Source: a virus
Lineage: Duplodnaviria; Heunggongvirae; Uroviricota; Caudoviricetes
DNA length: 7,046 bases
Direction: 5' to 3' (one strand)
Virus record (IMG/VR): IMGVR_UViG_2619619133_000005
Coordinates: 1-7,046 of that record
Shown here piece after piece: positions 1 to 7,046 of the stretch; the stretch's first letter is position 1; each line of letters opens with the position of its first letter. Both the position numbers and the translations under genes were made by a program. The notes under the pieces are model-generated. The model saw only the letters and a list, made by a program, of their open reading frames with translations, searched no databases and was not told the origin of the DNA.

Positions 1-537
1 ATGGAACCCCTTCGTGAAATAAGAAATCGGCTGCTTAACGGCTGGCAATTATCAAAAATGCATACTTTTGAAGTGGCTGCCAGGCATCAGTCCTTCGCCC
101 TGGCGGCAGAGGAATTGTCGCTGAGCCCCAGTGCGGTAAGTCACCGTATCAATCAGCTGGAAGAAGAATTGGGCATTCAGTTGTTTGTTCGTTCCCATCG
201 CAAAGTGGAATTAACGCACGAGGGGAAACGTGTTTATTGGGCGCTAAAATCGTCGCTGGATACCCTGAACCAGGAAATTCTTGATATCAAAAATCAGGAG
301 TTATCGGGAACGTTAACTCTGTATTCCCGGCCCTCTATCGCCCAATGCTGGTTGGTGCCCGCATTAGGTGACTTTACACGCCGGTATCTAACAGTAAAAG
401 CCGCCGGGGTATGGGCGGGGGGCATTGAAACACCTTCGGTGGAAACTCCATCGGAAGGCTCTAAATTTTTTGGTTTTGACATGGATAACGAATTCATCAG
501 TGGTTTTGATGTAGGGGCATGGGGAGTATTACTCTGA
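1..537 (+). pseudogene. dsdC: LysR-family transcriptional regulator, N-terminal fragment (DsdC-like D-serine deaminase activator), fused to phage-derived sequence
   Basis: The ORF begins at nt 1 and carries a typical LysR HTH (…HTFEVAARHQSFALAAEELSLSPSAVSHRINQLEEELGIQLFVRSHRKVELT…) plus the start of an effector domain (…LTLYSRPSIAQCWLVPALGDFTRRY). It is only 178 aa against roughly 300 for a LysR protein, and the last ~50 codons (LTVKAAGVWAGG…) do not look LysR-like. The junction is therefore near nt ~380. The dsdC name rests on my recollection of the protein and on its position near a P4-type integrase; it is unverified. Confidence 0.6.
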
Positions 538-1265
538 TGGCGAAAAATGACTTTAAAGCGTTTGCAACTGATCGAAATGCCAATGTTATGTCGCAGGAGG
601 AATGGGAAGCGTTGCCTGCGCTTATATCCGGATTTACAGCAGGGAAAGCATCCAGTGCGCAAGTCAATAAGGTTATTCGGCAGGCCAGCTTTATTGCTGC
701 AGCTCTGGCCCAGTTTGTAAGTGATAAAACGCAACGGGATGTGCTTGATAATGGTGATCTGCCCGGTTTTGTTGAATTGCTGGGATCGGGGTTTGCTGTT
801 GAATACCTGAGCCGCAAGAATCCGTTTGGTGATATCAAATCGGATGGCACGGTGAAAACAGCTCTCGAAAACCTTGGTTTGGGAGAAGCGGCAACGAGGA
901 ACGTCGGAACGGATACCGGGCAAGTACCAGATATGAGTAGTTTTACAACGGGGCACTCTGGAGCAGCAGACTGGCCGATTCCTAAATCTGGATGGAGTAA
1001 GGGGCCGGATGGGGTAATTACACAATGGGGTATTTTCGGTTTCCCCGTTGGACAGACAGGGACGAATGTTGTTTTCCCGCTACCTTTCCCCGCGCGGGTC
1101 GAATCAATTACACTGACAATGGCAGATATCCAGGAGTCTCTGCTTTCTCCAGCAACCATGCCTGCTTATGGAGTTAACTCAACTGGTACTTCAAGAACGG
1201 GTTTTACAGCCCGTATGTCAGGCGCCGGTGGGTTTAATCTTTGCTATATAGCGAAAGGGAGATAA
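519..1265 (+). CDS. Phage tail fibre protein, C-terminal portion (short constant region plus variable cassette A)
   Basis: 248-aa ORF whose frame is open from nt 510. It contains the left crossover site inside the codons for ALENLGLGE. Its stop (1263-1265) is followed 4 nt later by a tail-fibre-assembly gene with a GGGAGA ribosome-binding site. No further fibre N-terminus or other structural genes lie upstream. Confidence 0.6.
862..887. repeat. Left 26-bp crossover site for a Pin/Gin/Hin-family invertase (gix/hix/pix-like)
   Basis: CTCTCGAAAACC-TT-GGTTTGGGAGAA has the 12-2-12 architecture and AAACC/GGTTT half-site cores typical of gix/hix sites. Its inner half is a perfect inverted repeat of the inner half of the right site at 2740-2765. 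Confidence 0.6.
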
Positions 1266-1269
1266 CAGA

Positions 1270-1713
1270 ATGAATAAAGTTAAAAGTGTTTACAGCCCGT
1301 CCGAAAATGCAATCTACAACGCAGCGCTATATGAAAGTTATATCAAGGAGGGGACATGGCCGCAGGATGGTATTGAAATCAGCGATGAGGATGCTGTCAG
1401 ATTTAATGGGGGAAATAAGCCAACAGGAAAAATGCTGGGAATGGTTTCAGGGACCCTTGCATGGGTTGATGAGCCGCCGCTTTCACCAGAACAGAAAATA
1501 TCAGATGCAGAAAACATGAAAGCCACATTTCGTGCAAAAGCTGACAGTGAAATATCCTGGCGTCAGGATGCTGTTGATGCTGGTATCGCAACTGATGAAG
1601 AAACTTCAACTCTCACCCAATGGAAGAAATACCGTGTGCTGCTGATGCGTGTTGATACGTCAACAGCACCCGATATTGAATGGCCTACGCCTCCGGCAGC
1701 TCAGGCCAGATGA
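1270..1713 (+). CDS. Tail fibre assembly (chaperone) protein, cognate to cassette A
   Basis: 147 aa, ATG 4 nt after the fibre stop codon, with a GGGAGA ribosome-binding site. The C-terminus (…DTSTAPDIEWPTPP…) is of the type seen in Tfa/Mu U/P2 G chaperones. Confidence 0.7.
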   Translation: MNKVKSVYSPSENAIYNAALYESYIKEGTWPQDGIEISDEDAVRFNGGNKPTGKMLGMVSGTLAWVDEPPLSPEQKISDAENMKATFRAKADSEISWRQDAVDAGIATDEETSTLTQWKKYRVLLMRVDTSTAPDIEWPTPPAAQAR

Positions 1714-2287
1714 CATCAGGCGCGGTGCTGGTATCTGTTGCCGTCACCGCGTCAATGTAATCCAGCACGACGTTAAGTCGGGTTGTTTCTGCCTGCGTCA
1801 GTTTCCGCCCGGCCTGTAATTTCAGCTGAATCAGACTAATGGAAGCCATTGCTGCATCAATCAGTGACTGGCGCTGTGCTTCTGCCGCGTCTACTGCGGC
1901 ACTGTGTTGTGCCTCAGTGTCTGTCACCCATTTCTCACCATCCCATTTATCGTATGGCGTTAACGGGGCGATAGTGGTTGTATTTTCGGGGTAATCACCC
2001 GGAGTTGTGATTTCTTTGGCGTCTCCCGTTTCGGTGTTATAGACGATTTCACCGCGATGGTCTGGCACATATTCCCATGAGTTTAAATCTGCCGAACGGC
2101 AGATTGCATAACCAGCCTTATGTATACCAGGTTCATCCAGACAGGAATATGCCGGGATACCAACACCAACGGCAAGATATTCATTTGAAGTGGAAATATA
2201 TTCCCGAGTTTCACCATCATAGCTATAGACGGTAATATTCCCCGCCTTCGTGGCAATAAGCTCGCTATTTAATACAGCGTTATCCAT
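1685..2287 (-). CDS. Tail fibre assembly (chaperone) protein, cognate to cassette B
   Basis: 200 aa on the minus strand with the same C-terminal motif (…DTSTAPDVIWPELPEA). Its ATG overlaps the stop of the upstream cassette-B ORF by 1 nt (TAATG), suggesting translational coupling. Its 3' end overlaps the converging tfa gene by 29 nt. Confidence 0.7.
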   Translation of the reverse strand: MDNAVLNSELIATKAGNITVYSYDGETREYISTSNEYLAVGVGIPAYSCLDEPGIHKAGYAICRSADLNSWEYVPDHRGEIVYNTETGDAKEITTPGDYPENTTTIAPLTPYDKWDGEKWVTDTEAQHSAAVDAAEAQRQSLIDAAMASISLIQLKLQAGRKLTQAETTRLNVVLDYIDAVTATDTSTAPDVIWPELPEA

Positions 2288-2793
2288 TATGCAGCCCTCA
2301 CGATAAAGTTAAATGCAATATTTCGCGCACGTGTTTCCGTTGATGTTCTGGCAACACGTGATGCATCAAAATAATAATTCGCCTGTTTATATGTACCACC
2401 TGTCGCAATTGATGCGAGATTTGGTGTCAATGTTGAAGAGGTAAATGCGCCGACAGTATTATTATTTGGCCCCGTGGTCATATCCAAAAAGCTACCTGTA
2501 ATATTTTGCAGCGTATCGCTCTGAGCACTCAATAACGCTCGCCCACTGTCCACTCCACGCCCATCATCCCAGCCACGAATAAACTCACCACGTAAATCAG
2601 GCAATTTATTTGTCGGGTAAGCCTTTGCCAGCTCCGGGTATTCTTCAGCAGAAAAAGCTGCACCATTGCATTTCAACCAGCCTGTCGGTGGTGTAGCTGA
2701 AGGCCACGGAACAGGCACACCAACCGGTAATGCAGAGCCTTCTCCCAAACCAACGTTTATGAAAATGCAGAAATAACGATCAAATGGCATCAT
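2287..2793 (-). CDS. Alternative tail-fibre C-terminal variable cassette B (silent in this orientation)
   Basis: The minus-strand ORF encodes …INVGLGEGSALPVGVPVPWPSATPPTGW…NIAFNFIVRAA, a typical fibre distal-tip sequence. The GLGE codons coincide with the right crossover site, so genuine coding is about 2290-2753. The leading MMPFDRYFCIF… is read-through of sequence outside the segment and has no convincing start signal. Confidence 0.55.
   Translation of the reverse strand: MMPFDRYFCIFINVGLGEGSALPVGVPVPWPSATPPTGWLKCNGAAFSAEEYPELAKAYPTNKLPDLRGEFIRGWDDGRGVDSGRALLSAQSDTLQNITGSFLDMTTGPNNNTVGAFTSSTLTPNLASIATGGTYKQANYYFDASRVARTSTETRARNIAFNFIVRAA
2740..2765. repeat. Right 26-bp crossover site for the invertase
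   Basis: TTCTCCCAAACC-AA-CGTTTATGAAAA. Its reverse complement shares 19 of the 20 inner positions with the left site. It sits about 55 bp upstream of the invertase start codon. Confidence 0.6.
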
Positions 2794-2819
2794 TCCTGCT
2801 TTTGTCAGGGAGATCTACC

Positions 2820-3374
2820 ATGCTTATTGGCTATGTACGTGTGTCAACAAATGACCAGAACACAGATCTACAACGTAATGCGCTGAACTGTGCAGGATGC
2901 GAGCTTATTTTTGAAGACAAGATAAGCGGTACAAAGTCCGAAAGGCCGGGACTGAAAAAACTGCTCAGGACATTATCGGCAGGTGACACTCTGGTCGTCT
3001 GGAAGCTGGATCGGCTGGGGCGTAGTATGCGGCATCTTGTCGTGCTGGTGGAGGAGTTGCGCGAACGAGGCATCAACTTTCGTAGTCTGACGGATTCAAT
3101 TGATACCAGCACACCAATGGGACGCTTTTTCTTTCATGTGATGGGTGCCCTGGCTGAAATGGAGCGTGAACTGATTGTTGAACGAACAAAAGTTGGACTG
3201 GAAGCTGCTCGCGCACAGGGACGAATTGGTGGACGTCGCCCCAAACTTACACCAGAACAATGGGAGCAGGCCGGACGATTAATTGCAGCAGGAATTCCTC
3301 GCCAGAAGGTAGCGATCATCTATGATATTGGTGTATCGACTTTGTATAAGAGGTTTCCAGCCAGGATTATATAA
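2820..3374 (+). CDS. pin: Site-specific DNA invertase, serine recombinase of the Pin/Gin/Hin/Cin family
   Basis: 184 aa starting MLIGYVRVSTNDQNTDLQRNAL…, carrying the catalytic Ser of the resolvase/invertase N-terminal domain and a C-terminal HTH (…GIPRQKVAIIYDIGVSTLYKRFP). A GGGAG ribosome-binding site lies 7 nt upstream of the ATG at 2820. The ORF-track start at 2784 is an artefactual 12-codon extension. Confidence 0.9.
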   Translation: MLIGYVRVSTNDQNTDLQRNALNCAGCELIFEDKISGTKSERPGLKKLLRTLSAGDTLVVWKLDRLGRSMRHLVVLVEELRERGINFRSLTDSIDTSTPMGRFFFHVMGALAEMERELIVERTKVGLEAARAQGRIGGRRPKLTPEQWEQAGRLIAAGIPRQKVAIIYDIGVSTLYKRFPARII

Positions 3375-3411
3375 AACCGCAGACACGCCGTATGCAAGAC
3401 GTGCTGCGGTT
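3375..3411. terminator. Candidate stem-loop terminator between the convergent pin and cargo genes
   Basis: An imperfect ~12-bp stem (AACCGCAGACACG … CGTGCTGCGGTT) starts 1 nt after the pin stop codon. The minus-strand side is followed by a U-rich run (UUUAUAUAAU); the plus-strand side is only weakly U-rich. Confidence 0.3.
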
Positions 3412-3570
3412 GGCTGATGCACTTTCGAGAGTGTATGTATTGAATTATTTCCAGCCGTTACTGATTTTACGTATTTTTTGTATGAGAGGAGTTGCACCAC
3501 CTCTTAAGCATAATTTGTTAGAATCATGGCAGCACAATAGCCATATATCCAATATAAAATACTTAACCTT

Positions 3571-4470
3571 CTAATCATTATGGAGTATTTGATCGCCGTA
3601 TGGCCAGCCATTTTCCCCAGGAAGGGTCATACCTAACATTGGCATAATACTAAGTTGTCCAATGGTAAATCCTAGAGCACTTGTATTACTGATTCCGGCA
3701 TAGGTCATATCAAGGGGGTTAGACTCTGAGCTGGACATAAAAAGATTTCTTGTGCCAATTCTATTCGCCATTGAGAACTGAATATGCCCACCAATTGTAT
3801 TTACGGTGTCCTGAGATATCCAGTTGTTTAACGCGATAAATGGCGCCCGCCACCAGTTAAGCGTGCCATTCTCAAAACGCCCCCTCGTCATCTCAATATC
3901 TTCCCGAAACTGCTGCTTTCTGTCTCCCAAGACTACCGGGGTACCTGTTGTCAGGTCAAGGCAGTCCTCAATTACAAGATTAGTGGGGTTTGATGGGGTG
4001 TTGTAGATCTTAATGATTTTATGTACCTGTGTTCTGAAACAGAATCCGTAAATAATCATCTCCGTTGCTACAGAACGGGGAAAAAACTGGCCAATATCCA
4101 GTATAAATTTTTCCGCGATTCCCTTTGTTAAAACTGCAATTTCATAAAGACTCGGGTAACTATCATAAGTCAACTCCGGCTGCTGAACATCATAATAATT
4201 AACTTCATGTAATGAAGATAATGATACGGCAAGTAACTCCTTCACATTTATACCGATCATTGTTCCTCCTGCAAAGCCGAAACCAAACTCCATAATTTTT
4301 TCCGGAGATAGACGGTATATGTCATTGGAGCGAATAACTGATACCGGAATCGAGAATAGTTTAGGACAGTGATTTGTCATTACACTTTCATGCTGGGTGA
4401 TTCTTGAGTCGCTTACGGCCCAGATACTTTCCCCTTCTTCCCTGTTTAGCCAGCAGGCTATTGCTGTCAT
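3571..4470 (-). CDS. Hypothetical cargo protein, 299 aa, with possible N-terminal-nucleophile (HslV/proteasome-beta-like) hydrolase motifs
   Basis: The start is set at the internal Met (MTAIACWLN…) because a GGGGG ribosome-binding site lies 6 nt upstream; the ORF-track start at 4608 is a 46-codon extension. Motifs seen by eye against my recollection of HslV: Thr directly after Met, AVSDSRIT (HslV IAGDGQAT), SVM…K with Asp-to-Lys spacing of 16, GFAGGT (identical to HslV), and TTGTPVV (HslV ITGNGDVV). The protein has large insertions relative to HslV. Confidence 0.6.
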   Translation of the reverse strand: MTAIACWLNREEGESIWAVSDSRITQHESVMTNHCPKLFSIPVSVIRSNDIYRLSPEKIMEFGFGFAGGTMIGINVKELLAVSLSSLHEVNYYDVQQPELTYDSYPSLYEIAVLTKGIAEKFILDIGQFFPRSVATEMIIYGFCFRTQVHKIIKIYNTPSNPTNLVIEDCLDLTTGTPVVLGDRKQQFREDIEMTRGRFENGTLNWWRAPFIALNNWISQDTVNTIGGHIQFSMANRIGTRNLFMSSSESNPLDMTYAGISNTSALGFTIGQLSIMPMLGMTLPGENGWPYGDQILHND

Positions 4471-4871
4471 TGAAAACCCCCTTTTAAGTAAAAAAATCAG
4501 ATTCAGATAGTGCATACATAATTTAGTCAAGTCATCTCTTTTAAGACGCATTGAGAAATGGTTGCTCAAGGTGCGCCAGTGAACGCGCACGAAAATAACT
4601 TCTTGCATTTCCCATTACACTCTGACTTTAGGGCCGCGTTAGATTTTAACATGGTGGCCGTGCATCCATTTAAATTGGTAATCTGGAGAATGAGTAACGC
4701 TGAATAGATTAACAATCTATGCGACTAACGGCCCTTAAAAGCGCAGCTCATAACATCGAATTTTACCAGTTTAGTCATTTTTAAAAAGTGCCCGAAAAAT
4801 GTTGTCCACGATTTGTGCTCTACGTCCCATCTTGACCTACTCCCTGATAATTCACTCAGAAGGCGGTTAGC

Positions 4872-4901
4872 AATGTCCGTTAAGTGCTCACAACGGACAT
4901 T
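4872..4901. promoter_or_regulatory. Perfect 10-bp inverted repeat with 10-nt spacer (AATGTCCGTT-N10-AACGGACATT) in the long intergenic region
   Basis: Seen directly in the sequence. It has no U-tract on either strand, so it is not a canonical intrinsic terminator. It may be a protein-binding palindrome or an RNA stem. Confidence 0.25.
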
Positions 4902-4951
4902 CAGCCCACTAAATCCGACCGTGTCGCTCAATATGCGGACAGGTTGTAGTG

Positions 4952-5554
4952 CTAACTGCATTGTAGCTGTGAGATTTCACCATCGATGGCTTCTATAACC
5001 TGTTTATAGCGGAGCATGACCTCATCATGAATCATCATTAATCCGCGGCCGTACTCTGTGGCTAGGATTGTGTATCTTTTCAGGTGTGCAAGATGTTCTT
5101 TGTTGCCAGTAATGTCACTTGCAACCTGCGTGGAGTCCAGCCGTTCGATAAGCGCATTATTGCCGCGATAGGAATCAATTAGGCTTCTTGCGCTTGTATA
5201 AAAAGCCACAATTTTTGAGAGTGTTTCTCTATGAACTTCAGGTAGGGATGCCGAGTTGGCTTCATAGAACGTGAAGTAGTTTTGAGTAATGGGGAAAATG
5301 TTATCGAACGGTGAGTTCCGGTCGTATTTTTCGATTTCTTCTGCCATTCTGGCCTGATACAGTTTAATCAGTGAGTCTATTTCCTCTCTGACACCCAATA
5401 GCGTTGTTATACGCTTCTCTCTGGCCGCTGTTGCCTGCTGTTTTGCCTGCTGTTTCACCTGAGTTGTCACTCCTATCATCGTGAAACAGCCACCTAAAAG
5501 AGCTGCTAAAAATGCGGAGATGAGATCTGAATATTCGTGCCAGAAGGTTAGCAT
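4952..5554 (-). CDS. Hypothetical cargo protein, 200 aa, with one N-terminal transmembrane helix and a helical, charged soluble domain
   Basis: The ORF has a hydrophobic N-terminal segment (DLISAFLAALLGGCFTMIGVTT), then a Q/K-rich linker and a helical-looking domain. It sits on the same strand as, and upstream of, the HslV-like gene. The ribosome-binding site is weak (GGAA). Confidence 0.55.
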   Translation of the reverse strand: MLTFWHEYSDLISAFLAALLGGCFTMIGVTTQVKQQAKQQATAAREKRITTLLGVREEIDSLIKLYQARMAEEIEKYDRNSPFDNIFPITQNYFTFYEANSASLPEVHRETLSKIVAFYTSARSLIDSYRGNNALIERLDSTQVASDITGNKEHLAHLKRYTILATEYGRGLMMIHDEVMLRYKQVIEAIDGEISQLQCS

Positions 5555-5570
5555 GGCGAAAATTCCATTG

Positions 5571-5593
5571 GGTTAAATTATGTCTATTTAACC
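5571..5593. promoter_or_regulatory. Operator-like palindrome (GGTTAAAT-N7-ATTTAACC) 17-40 bp upstream of the membrane-protein gene start
   Basis: A perfect 8-bp inverted repeat seen directly, overlapped by a second partial palindrome (AATTATGT/ACATAATg). Its position suits a repressor-binding site in the promoter region of the cargo gene. Confidence 0.25.
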
Positions 5594-5888
5594 ACATAAT
5601 GATACGAAGATACCTTCCAAAATGTTGCTATGACCCCATCTGTTGTTGCCTGGCTGGTGACGTGTCTGGGTATTAGCACCGTGCTCTCTCATTATCTAAG
5701 TCTGGGCCAATCCTCGTTCATAACAGGCATTCACTTCAGTCATGGCAGAAAGGTATGCATGCTGGAGAAGTCATGAAAGAAAAGAAGACTTCTGCCTCGT
5801 TTGTCATCACTGTTATCTTCTCATTGATTATGCAGGTCATAGTGGGGACACACAAAGCTTTGTACTATCCGATAGTGGTTAAGGTGGA

Positions 5889-7046
5889 TCACTCCCCCTT
5901 TTCATCAAGCCAATCCGCCCACCACTGCATCATTTCTCTGCGCTTATCGAGATACTGAGCATGGTTGTAAATACCGCGCACAGATCCGCCGTTGGCATGT
6001 GCCAGTTGCACTTCAATAGCGTCAGCAGGCCATTCGTGCTCGTTCATAATCGTGCTGAATTCATGCCTGAATCCGTGACCGCTTTCCAGACCCTCATAGC
6101 CGATTTGTTTGATCACAAGTAGCACCGCGTTCTCGCAAATTGGCTTCTTCTTATCGTTGCGCCCGGAAAAAACAAACTCTGATACTGGTTTAGTGATTGA
6201 GCTTAGTGTAGTGAGAAGTTCAACCACCTGGTCTGACATCGGGACCACATGAATTTTGCGTCCCTTCATTACACTGGCGTCGATGGTGATAATCCTGTTT
6301 TCAAAATCGACGTTCTTCCATAGCATGGAGCGAAGCTCTTTCGTTCTTAGGGCTGTGTAGCGCAAAACTTTAGTCGCAATGAGCGATACGATACTTCCTG
6401 AAAATGTTGCCAGTGCTTTATTGAATGCCGGGATCTGGTCTGCAGGAAGAAACGGGAAGTTTTTCTTGCGGTATCCCTTCATGGCGTCAGCAAGGTCAGG
6501 TGCCGGGTTATATTTAGCCCTACCAGTGACAATAGCGTAACGGAAAACCTCGCCGCATCTTCTGCGGGCTTTATTTGCTCGCTCCATTGCACCGCGATCT
6601 TCAAATCTGCGGATTACTTCCAGCAGTTGCATCGGCTCAATCTCCTGAATTTCAAGGCCGCCGATGATAGGTAAAATGTCGTCATCAAACATTTTTGCAA
6701 GTTCAGTCGCATACCCTACTGACCATACTTGCTTCTTGTGCTCGTACCATTCCTTGTAAATCGCACTAAATGAATTGTTGTTAGACGAAGCCTTTTTCGC
6801 CTTTACCGGATCGATGCCAACCGAGATGTCTTTCCTCGCAGTCCATGCCTTATCCCTTGCTTCCTGCAAAGTCATAAGCGGATATTTTCCGACGGTCAGG
6901 ATTTTCTCCTTACCGTCAATCTTGTAGCGAAGCTGCCATACCTTTTTCCCGGATACAGGAACATAAAGGTACAGGCCATTACCATCGAGAAGGCGGTATG
7001 GTTTTTCTTTCGGCTTTGCTGCTTCAATCTGCTTAACGGTGAGCAT
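5889..7046 (-). CDS. intS: Phage integrase, tyrosine recombinase of the P4 type
   Basis: 385-aa ORF starting with the ATG at the window edge. The N-terminus (MLTVKQIEAAKPKEKPYRLLDGNGLYLYVPVSGKKVWQLRYK…) is P4-like, and the C-terminal catalytic region has …GHGFRHEFST… and …RGIYNHAQY (His-x-x-Arg and Tyr nucleophile). The intS name is inferred from length and from proximity to dsdC as at the E. coli argW prophage site; it is unverified. Upstream signals lie outside the window. Confidence 0.85.
   Translation of the reverse strand: MLTVKQIEAAKPKEKPYRLLDGNGLYLYVPVSGKKVWQLRYKIDGKEKILTVGKYPLMTLQEARDKAWTARKDISVGIDPVKAKKASSNNNSFSAIYKEWYEHKKQVWSVGYATELAKMFDDDILPIIGGLEIQEIEPMQLLEVIRRFEDRGAMERANKARRRCGEVFRYAIVTGRAKYNPAPDLADAMKGYRKKNFPFLPADQIPAFNKALATFSGSIVSLIATKVLRYTALRTKELRSMLWKNVDFENRIITIDASVMKGRKIHVVPMSDQVVELLTTLSSITKPVSEFVFSGRNDKKKPICENAVLLVIKQIGYEGLESGHGFRHEFSTIMNEHEWPADAIEVQLAHANGGSVRGIYNHAQYLDKRREMMQWWADWLDEKGE

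Follow-up and report, generated by a model that had tools for sequence, protein, structure and literature searches.

Both orientations of a Pin/e14-type tail-fibre inversion switch in a decayed prophage at argW/dsdC

When a prophage has decayed to a few genes, does the DNA inversion switch that selects the tip of its tail fibre still flip? This question is raised by a 7,046-nucleotide stretch of caudoviricete DNA (IMG/VR record IMGVR_UViG_2619619133_000005; the whole stretch is here referred to as the window), in which an initial annotation made from the sequence alone had described a fibre switch with identifiable crossover sites. The locus lies in the argW/dsdC region and has an integrase of the IntS type, and its fibre module is situated between a truncated dsdC and a group made up of pin, two cargo genes, and intS. 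At the dsdC side, host and phage sequences share one open reading frame (ORF):

1..537, + strand: N-terminal part of the host DsdC (to approximately position 388), continuing in frame into the final 49 or so codons of a phage baseplate gene

The DsdC part of this fusion matches HTH_1 of the LysR family (E 2e-22), with the LysR substrate domain limited to its first 35 positions, and the upstream neighbours of the fusion ORF are dsdX and dsdA homologues. The phage part is of the DUF2612/baseplate-wedge type and matches the structural protein phrog_587, homology to intact prophages starts at window position 383, and the stop codon of the fusion overlaps the start codon of the fibre gene (TGATG, 535-539). 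Baseplate, tail, and head genes, which the related intact prophages have, are absent from the window and from its source contig, and in neither was the fibre found to be part of a virion or tailocin with orientation-dependent host range. Regarding the cargo, a 345-aa ORF had no match in PADLOC, Pfam, PHROGs, or NCBIfam, and a 200-aa ORF gave weak ZorB/MotB-like matches only (E 0.002-0.006) in the same four collections. No convincing promoter was found upstream of the fibre ORF or of the pin-proximal ORF, the hits of a promoter and terminator consensus scan being no more numerous than those in shuffled sequence.

The switch itself is delimited by two crossover sites:

862-887, - strand: left crossover site, 26 bp, reading TTCTCCCAAACC-AA-GGTTTTCGAGAG, core dinucleotide at 874-875
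2740-2765, + strand: right crossover site, 26 bp, reading TTCTCCCAAACC-AA-CGTTTATGAAAA, core dinucleotide at 2752-2753

Both the positions and the letters given for these sites in the initial annotation were correct, as was their mutually inverted arrangement; the left site reads CTCTCGAAAACC-TT-GGTTTGGGAGAA on the + strand, and the two 26-mers are equal at 21 of 26 positions when compared on opposite strands. They have in common an unbroken run of 14 bp, made up of the half-site TTCTCCCAAACC and the core AA. The window has exactly one copy of the 14-mer TTCTCCCAAACCAA on each strand, where chance would give 0.10 copies (at most two mismatches allowed), and a repeat search returned as the top inverted repeat of the window a 20-nt, 95% complementary pair with arms at 869-888 and 2739-2758. 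The 12-2-12 layout, the inverted orientation, and the identical AA cores of both sites are those of invertase sites, and the internal dyad symmetry between half-sites is 9/12 in one site and 8/12 in the other. A third crossover site was not found in the window by a 26-bp scan that allowed seven mismatches, and a multi-site shufflon of the Min/p15B type was ruled out because the window contains two sites only. The left site is base-for-base identical to an e14 site (L004 3779-3804) and to sites in NADC1036, B1S11, and DEC5E, and the right site likewise to the e14 site at L004 5606-5631; the match is 19-20 of 26 positions to the annotated P1 cixL and 17-18 of 26 to the Mu G-segment boundary site.

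Between the two crossover points lie 1880 bp (874-2753) that carry two alternative fibre C-termini, each with a chaperone gene, whereas the constant part of the fibre gene and a short leader lie outside:

537..873, + strand: constant N-terminal part of the tail-fibre gene, approximately 112 codons, outside the segment
876..1265, + strand: variable fibre C-terminus joined in the window, gp53-like (PF21882 Gp53-like_C, E 5e-10)
1270..1713, + strand: tail-fibre assembly chaperone, 147 aa, pairing with the gp53-like tip (PF02413 Caudo_TAP, E 1e-32; phrog_188, E 2e-51)
1685..2287, - strand: tail-fibre assembly chaperone, 200 aa, TfaE-like, pairing with the collar-type tip (PF02413 Caudo_TAP, E 7e-32)
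2287..2751, - strand: alternative fibre C-terminus with a phage tail collar domain (PF07484 Collar, E 2e-15; phrog_523, E 5e-79)
2754..2793, - strand: short fixed leader MMPFDRYFCIFINV, outside the segment, taken from the ORF list

In the window, the fibre ORF thus spans 537-1265 on the + strand, and the pin-proximal ORF spans 2287-2793 on the - strand, reading MMPFDRYFCIFINVGLGE|GSALPVGVPVPWPSATPPTGW. Residues 1-121 of the constant part match the tail-fibre families phrog_1396 and phrog_11303 (E 3e-71 and 3e-65), and the corresponding 5' part of the fibre gene in the intact prophages of L003, L005, L006, and L007 is 97-98% identical to it. ORF, Pfam, and PHROGs data agree on the arrangement of a tail-fibre switch, i.e., a constant N-terminus outside and two in-frame C-termini with cognate chaperones inside. 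It had been claimed that inversion swaps the fibre C-terminus and that each variant has its own chaperone gene, and both statements are borne out: the alternatives are in frame, and the fibre is 242 or 267 aa long depending on orientation, with the predicted 267-aa flipped form equal to a 267-aa Collar-domain gene called in the flipped contig L009. The collar tip, which is unjoined to the constant part in the window, is in frame with it in L009 and in a second flipped contig, L011. The further claim that each site lies within codons for a shared peptide LGLGE held for the reading frames but not for the peptide, which is GLGE in both copies, the one beside pin reading V-GLGE. The fibre that is expressed nevertheless has LGLGE in either orientation, since the exchange point is within a Leu codon, CTT at 873-875. 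On the pin side, the leader supplies its own ATG to whichever tip is adjacent; a 143-aa ORF was predicted there for the flipped state, and L009 has a called gene of 142 aa with the Gp53-like_C domain at this place. The analogous leader-started ORFs of K-12 are stfE and stfE2 (PMC12529663).

The invertase gene, with a presumed enhancer inside it, follows directly after the segment:

2820..3374, + strand: pin, full-length serine DNA invertase, 184 aa (Resolvase PF00239, E 6e-51; HTH_7 PF02796, E 9e-15)
2838..2909, + strand: presumed recombinational (Fis-binding) enhancer inside the pin 5' end, assigned by homology only

The product has the N-terminal resolvase catalytic domain and the C-terminal HTH_7 DNA-binding domain of an invertase, and shares 96% of its residues with PinE, 82% with Cin, and 78% with Gin. 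Gin crystal-structure chains match residues 1-182 (E 1e-94), and the structure of the Hin DNA-binding domain matches residues 139-182. The earlier remark that pin looks intact is borne out by its full length. Like PinE, Cin, and Gin, the product has Ser9 and the invariant columns around it, and it carries a private A125V substitution in helix E. As for the enhancer, the P1 record places that of Cin-mediated inversion at nucleotides 19-90 of cin, and the aligned stretch here is 2838-2909, with 69 of 72 positions identical to e14 pinE, 55 of 72 to cin, and 54 of 72 to gin.

Taken as a class, the locus is very probably a two-state, Pin-catalysed inversion switch of the Gin/Cin/Hin/Pin type that controls the receptor-binding C-terminus of a short tail fibre. 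Its closest relative is the P segment of e14 in K-12, for which inversion by PinE has been documented experimentally (PMC4272514, PMC12529663; see also Plasterk and van de Putte 1985 on the P segment, as cited in PMC4272514). The two systems have identical 26-bp sites, invertases of equal length, the same gene order (fibre-tfa, inverted tfa and fibre', then pin), TfaE-like chaperones that are 90% identical, and a conserved 25-residue junction peptide, and both are situated in a decayed prophage. They differ in that e14 is located at icd and the present locus at argW/dsdC with an IntS-type integrase; in the distance between cores (1829 bp in e14 versus 1880 bp here); in the gp53-like tip, which is only 36% identical to StfP, and its chaperone, which is 39% identical to TfaP over 76 aligned residues; in the collar tip, which is a mosaic with 57% identity to StfE; and in the neighbourhood of the invertase gene, where e14 has mcrA and the window has a two-gene module and no mcrA. 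The locus is therefore not the e14 P segment proper (icd, StfP/TfaP with StfE/TfaE, mcrA), but its sites and its Pin are of the e14 type.

The Mu G/Gin and P1 C/Cin systems resemble the locus in the class of serine invertase, the 12-2-12 sites with a 2-bp core, a conserved stretch in the invertase gene 5' end that corresponds to the enhancer annotated in P1, and the principle by which a fixed fibre N-terminus is combined with exchangeable C-termini and chaperones; in Mu, moreover, the spacing from the G-segment boundary to gin is 67 bp, equal to the distance from the right-site centre to the pin ATG. However, Mu and P1 are functional, have long fibres, and have been shown to switch host range, whereas the fibre here is short and has no virion genes nearby, and P1 has cin on the opposite side of the segment as regards enhancer geometry. 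The Hin/hix system of Salmonella flagellar phase variation has a homologous invertase and the same site architecture, and its Fis/enhancer mechanism and sites have been described by the Johnson laboratory (PMC3798978, PMC4513852), but Hin flips a promoter instead of coding cassettes and hin lies inside its own invertible segment. In this analysis, the parts of the switch, their identity with the e14 system, and both orientations in one clonal lineage were documented. The system is an ordinary copy of the known Pin/e14-type switch, i.e., a textbook case and not a new one. Mechanism, sites, and enzyme of such switches have been known since the 1980s, and the locus is for this reason of little discovery value as such.

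Whether the segment has flipped in the decayed prophage was assessed through an exact-sequence look-up of the DsdC'-fusion protein, which returned 13 public contigs with the same dsdC'-prophage deletion junction, nine oriented as in the window and four flipped. One of them, L008, equals the window at 7046 of 7046 bases. Compared with the predicted flip (the window with 874-2753 reverse-complemented), L009 is identical at 5926 of 5928 bases, its two mismatches being outside the segment at 3193 (pin) and 5896 (intS) and none within the segment or at the junctions, and L011 is identical at 1669 of 1669 bases. The breakpoints of the flipped contigs are located exactly at the predicted core dinucleotides. 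In the 8 kb upstream flank, L009, L010, and L011 share one SNP relative to L008, although L010 is unflipped and the other two are flipped. Since both orientations of the locus occur in one clonal lineage, it has been inverted at least once after the prophage shrank to a remnant, an observation that concerns the population, i.e., clonal sister contigs and not one culture. The suggestion that the switch may still flip despite the decay of the prophage holds at that same level. Beyond this lineage, the same cassette pair beside pin was found in unrelated complete genomes, with the flipped right junction, over 80% or more of the query, in 16 and that of the window in 92; an exact scan of a species-representative genome collection with the dsdC'/prophage junction 34-mer gave no match.

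It could be argued that the opposite orientations reflect RecA-dependent recombination between short inverted repeats, or assembly artefacts, as the arms share a nearly perfect inverted repeat of 19-20 bp and the short-read contigs L010 and L011 end inside the segment. Such an origin is hardly credible, given that the flipped junction was seen independently in ERR3328832 and SRR1186636 and in two further similar places, and that the junctions lie at canonical invertase sites conserved base for base across diverged prophages. The shared repeat is also shorter than the 31-mers with which, as we assume, the Logan assemblies were built, and shorter than efficient RecA substrates. The ends of L010 and L011, considered as a possible sign of mixed orientation as well, were rejected as such, being located at window positions 1754-1958 in the conserved tfa 3' region, away from the sites.

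Another pair, L005 and L006, was initially considered as further evidence of flipping in situ. Both carry the same argW prophage, with the segment in opposite orientations and flanks that are 99.3-99.97% identical, but their segments are only 82-94% identical and the adjacent recombinase gene has just 123 bp left in each, and the pair was rejected as evidence. Because the segments diverge far more than the flanks (approximately 6% versus less than 1%), their difference suggests cassette exchange or replacement rather than a clean flip.

The same pair bears on which enzyme acts. An invertase encoded by a second prophage gene, of the Pin family or PinQ-like, could have acted in trans and made the resident pin dispensable, which would explain opposite orientations beside a truncated recombinase gene, and several pin homologues are common in E. 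coli genomes (median 2, up to 13 matching places per genome). In addition, Kirigo et al. (2025, PMC12529663) reported that PinQ, from prophage Qin and with 38% identity to PinE, acts on the same repeats to invert the P segment of e14, and does so more strongly than PinE. Against this, pinE mutants reportedly have a locked segment, so the resident enzyme matters in K-12 (PMC12529663), and the L005/L006 case is weakened by the suggested cassette exchange; inversion in trans is unlikely here, though it deserves more weight than the other alternatives.

The private substitution offers a different view, namely that the switch is frozen in the strain of the window, locked in the gp53-like orientation by A125V or by lack of expression, the flips of sister lineages having been made by the ancestral Ala125 enzyme. 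A125V is confined to the window and L008, Ala being present in NADC1036, L009, K-12, Cin, Gin, and all compared invertases; L009, the sole flipped contig that extends to pin, carries Ala125; and the window has the orientation of NADC1036, the closest intact prophage. Nevertheless, a change from Ala to Val is conservative, and column 125 is not invariant in the family because gamma-delta resolvase has Glu there. The Hin residue corresponding to Pin A125 was not found in two papers on Hin. The invariant columns of the catalytic domain are all intact, and other Pin-family invertases can act on these sites in trans (PMC12529663), which leaves a frozen switch distinctly improbable.

Under the preferred reading of a two-state Pin switch, the inversion would have been carried out by the resident Pin, probably with the aid of Fis and the enhancer, by analogy with the related systems. 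Pin dimers would bind the two inverted 26-bp sites, which would be brought together with the Fis-bound enhancer presumed in the pin 5' end; staggered cuts of 2 nt would then be made in the identical AA/TT cores of both sites, and half of the tetramer would rotate by 180 degrees before religation of the ends, reversing the segment. In the orientation of the window, the constant N-terminus would be made with the gp53-like tip, followed by the 147-aa chaperone, and in the other orientation with the collar-domain tip, followed by the 200-aa TfaE-like chaperone. The fibre is presumably expressed, and read-through from the dsdC promoter may account for this.

What a fibre switch could do for the host of a prophage that has lost its virion genes is suggested by the PinQ/PinE-StfE2 phage-exclusion system reported for e14 in 2025 (PMC12529663). 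By analogy, the host may have kept the fibre module to exclude phages in a phase-variable manner: the tip made in one orientation would mask a receptor, and its transcription might start at the host dsdC promoter and run through the DsdC'-fusion ORF. This proposal is a long shot; flipping after the loss of virion genes is compatible with it but is no demonstration of phage exclusion. The locus provides a clean in silico case of a switch that goes on flipping once its prophage has shrunk to a fibre module, pin, cargo, and an integrase, and it lends itself naturally to a test of the recent claim that fibre inversions in cryptic prophages serve as an anti-phage defence of the host. For annotation and assembly, it is a reminder that the orientation of such a locus is a variable of the population and not a marker of the strain.

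The window, 7046 bp long, contains these features (coordinates, strand, feature).

Features of the window
1 to ~388, +, 5' portion of host dsdC (LysR-type regulator)
388-537, +, 3'-terminal ~49 codons of a phage baseplate gene, in frame with dsdC'
537-1265, +, tail-fibre gene, 242 aa
1270-1713, +, Caudo_TAP chaperone, 147 aa
1685-2287, -, Caudo_TAP chaperone, 200 aa
2287-2793, -, ORF with phage tail collar domain, 168 aa
2820-3374, +, serine recombinase (pin), 184 aa
3571-4608, -, ORF without clear family match
4952-5554, -, ORF without clear family match
5889-7046, -, IntS-type tyrosine integrase

Positions 810-7046 recur at 99.9% identity in E. coli NADC1036 (complete genome). An intact Mu-tail-like prophage ends there on its right with this stretch; it is integrated at tRNA-Arg (argW), and its tape measure, baseplate, and YmfQ genes lie upstream of the matching part. 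The window thus represents only a remnant of a prophage. The full window is found at 100% identity in NCBI assembly GCA_000700245.1 (contig JNMH01000013.1), with dsdX, dsdA, emrY, emrK, evgA, and evgS to the left. The deletion took out dsdC codon ~129 through to just ahead of the fibre gene. In the resulting fusion ORF (window 1-539), dsdC is cut off after ~codon 129 and the baseplate part is of the DUF2612 type, so that the source strain should lack a functional DsdC. The match to intact prophages begins at 383, DsdC-like coding appears to extend to ~388 (judged against the K-12 DsdC sequence), and a few bases of microhomology at the junction are possible. The fibre module may now be driven by the dsdC promoter; the stop codon of the fusion ORF shares bases with the fibre start codon (TGATG at 535-539), which makes read-through a reasonable idea, and no fibre promoter stood out in a promoter scan.

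The initial annotation proposed a Pin-driven tail-fibre inversion switch, and both of its 26-bp crossover sites are present (862-887 and 2740-2765). They are inverted relative to each other, with 21 of 26 positions matching on opposite strands, including an unbroken identical 14-mer that spans one half-site and the core. There are just two copies of this 14-mer, one on each strand (chance expectation 0.10), the site pair is the top inverted repeat of the region, and a window scan revealed no third site at up to 7 mismatches. The proposed reading frames hold at both sites, but not the shared peptide LGLGE, as the pin-proximal copy encodes V-GLGE. When the invertible segment (874-2753, 1880 bp) was reverse-complemented in silico, the constant 112 codons were joined in frame to the collar-type tip, i.e., the fibre C-terminus is swapped as anticipated. 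Each variant also has its own chaperone: the predicted flipped 267-aa fibre is directly followed by the 200-aa chaperone, and the unflipped 242-aa fibre goes with the 147-aa Caudo_TAP protein. Both sites are base-for-base identical to those flanking the P segment of e14 in E. coli K-12, and identical sites occur in three further E. coli prophages examined; P1 cixL (annotated in its record) and the Mu G-segment boundary site agree with the window sites in their 12-2-12 layout and at 17-20 of 26 positions.

The recombinase is 96% identical to PinE of e14, at equal length, 82% to Cin (P1), and 78% to Gin (Mu), aligns to chains from Gin crystal structures (E 1e-94), and keeps Ser9 and every column invariant among the four. 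The gene looks intact, with the qualification that the window's allele carries a private A125V substitution in helix E (codon 125, 3192-3194), found only in the window and in L008, a contig with the same deletion junction. Ala occupies this position in NADC1036, B1S11, PinE, Cin, Gin, and L009, the only flipped contig reaching pin; the column is not invariant, since gamma-delta resolvase has Glu there. From the right site centre to the invertase ATG there are 67 bp, the same distance as in Mu. A putative enhancer is placed at 2838-2909 by homology only: this stretch is the homologue of the annotated P1 enhancer (cin nt 19-90), and 69 of its 72 positions are identical in e14 pinE.

That the switch can flip despite the decay of the prophage is supported at population level by contigs sharing the deletion junction. 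The 178-aa DsdC'-fusion protein served as junction marker; its exact sequence was found in 13 contigs, nine in the window's orientation and four in the opposite one (listed loci counted together with those grouped with them as similar). In L009 (ERR3328832), a 267-aa Collar-domain fibre, the 200-aa chaperone, the inverted 147-aa chaperone plus gp53-like tip, and pin follow each other, exactly the architecture predicted for the flip; over 5928 bp only two mismatches to this prediction are seen, at 3193 (pin) and 5896 (intS), both outside the segment and junctions. L011 (SRR1186636), likewise flipped, equals the prediction at 1669/1669 bp, and L010 is unflipped. Across 8 kb of left flank, L009, L010, and L011 differ from L008 by a single common SNP. 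Since a given deletion junction comes about a single time, the presence of both orientations in this near-clonal set means that the segment inverted precisely at least once after prophage decay. The sites, the class of enzyme, the alternative products in frame, and precise inversion at the core dinucleotides are established here. By analogy with the DNA-invertase family (PMC3798978, PMC4513852), Pin dimers on both sites would synapse at a Fis-bound enhancer and cleave the AA/TT cores with 2-nt staggers, one subunit pair would turn 180 degrees, and the ends would be religated, with inverted sites and identical cores solely in the inverted configuration. Alternatively, another invertase may have catalysed the inversion in trans (PMC12529663).

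Independently of this set, unrelated complete genomes have the same two cassettes beside pin, in one orientation or the other. The right junction is flipped in 16 genomes (query coverage of at least 80%) and has the window's orientation in 92, and B1S11 contains the entire flipped arrangement at ~94% identity. These population findings agree with published work on e14's identical sites: both genotypes occur side by side in MG1655-derived cultures (PMC4272514), overproduced PinE or PinQ shifts the orientation ratio, the segment is locked in pinE mutants, and among 562 deposited genomes of E. coli, 33% contained an inverted P segment (PMC12529663).

Two argW prophages (L005 2987-4931, L006 2987-4943) have the segment in opposite orientations, with flanks 99.3-99.97% but segments only 82-94% identical, and in both the recombinase gene beside it is truncated to 123 bp, which suggests cassette replacement via recombination with another prophage or a pre-divergence inversion in trans. 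In E. coli O55:H7 DEC5E (L003), 4417-4973 is 97.8% identical to window 383-888, which covers the constant part of the fibre and the remnant before it; the pinE of that prophage has a frameshift according to its annotation, and the gp53-like cassette is in the flipped position; this prophage may be a truly locked switch.

Downstream of pin, up to the end of the prophage, lies a variable cargo hotspot across related prophages (L001, L004, L005, L006, L007): e14 has mcrA there, MEI1A-0323 an XF1762-family gene and a hypothetical one, and both GPT24-02 and TL20 a gene for a 445-aa hypothetical protein together with an IS3 remnant. In the window, 3377-5866 is a minus-strand two-gene module without clear family assignment: the 345-aa ORF (299 aa in RefSeq, start MTAIACW) had no match in Pfam, PHROG, NCBIfam, or PADLOC, and the 200-aa ORF only weak ZorB/MotB-like PADLOC matches (E 0.002-0.006). 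This 2.5-kb block recurs at 99% identity in several unrelated E. coli chromosomes and in plasmid pSM107_MCR, where it likewise lies beside tail-fibre and tfa genes; it is possibly a mobile defence-type cassette that occupies the pin-int slot.

Since the remnant has lost all virion genes, there is no particle whose host range could be switched, unless the fibres are taken up by another prophage. The exclusion role recently proposed for e14 StfE2 (PMC12529663) would offer an alternative purpose for the fibre module. This function is not transferable by homology, because the relevant tip, the expressed gp53-like one, is only distantly related to StfP (36% identical); the chaperone paired with it shares 39% identity with TfaP across 76 aligned residues. 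The other cassette is closer to e14, with a TfaE-like chaperone 90% identical to TfaE and a collar tip that is a 57% identical mosaic of StfE. e14 itself differs from the window element in integration site, one cassette, and neighbouring cargo.

Both the observation and the interpretation of the initial annotation were essentially right. The sequence-testable defining features of the switch family were found, with the enhancer putative and placed by homology only; serving a virion is the sole one absent. The element belongs to the family of the e14 P/Pin, Mu G/Gin, and P1 C/Cin switches and works alike, an ordinary representative of a kind of switch that is already thoroughly known.
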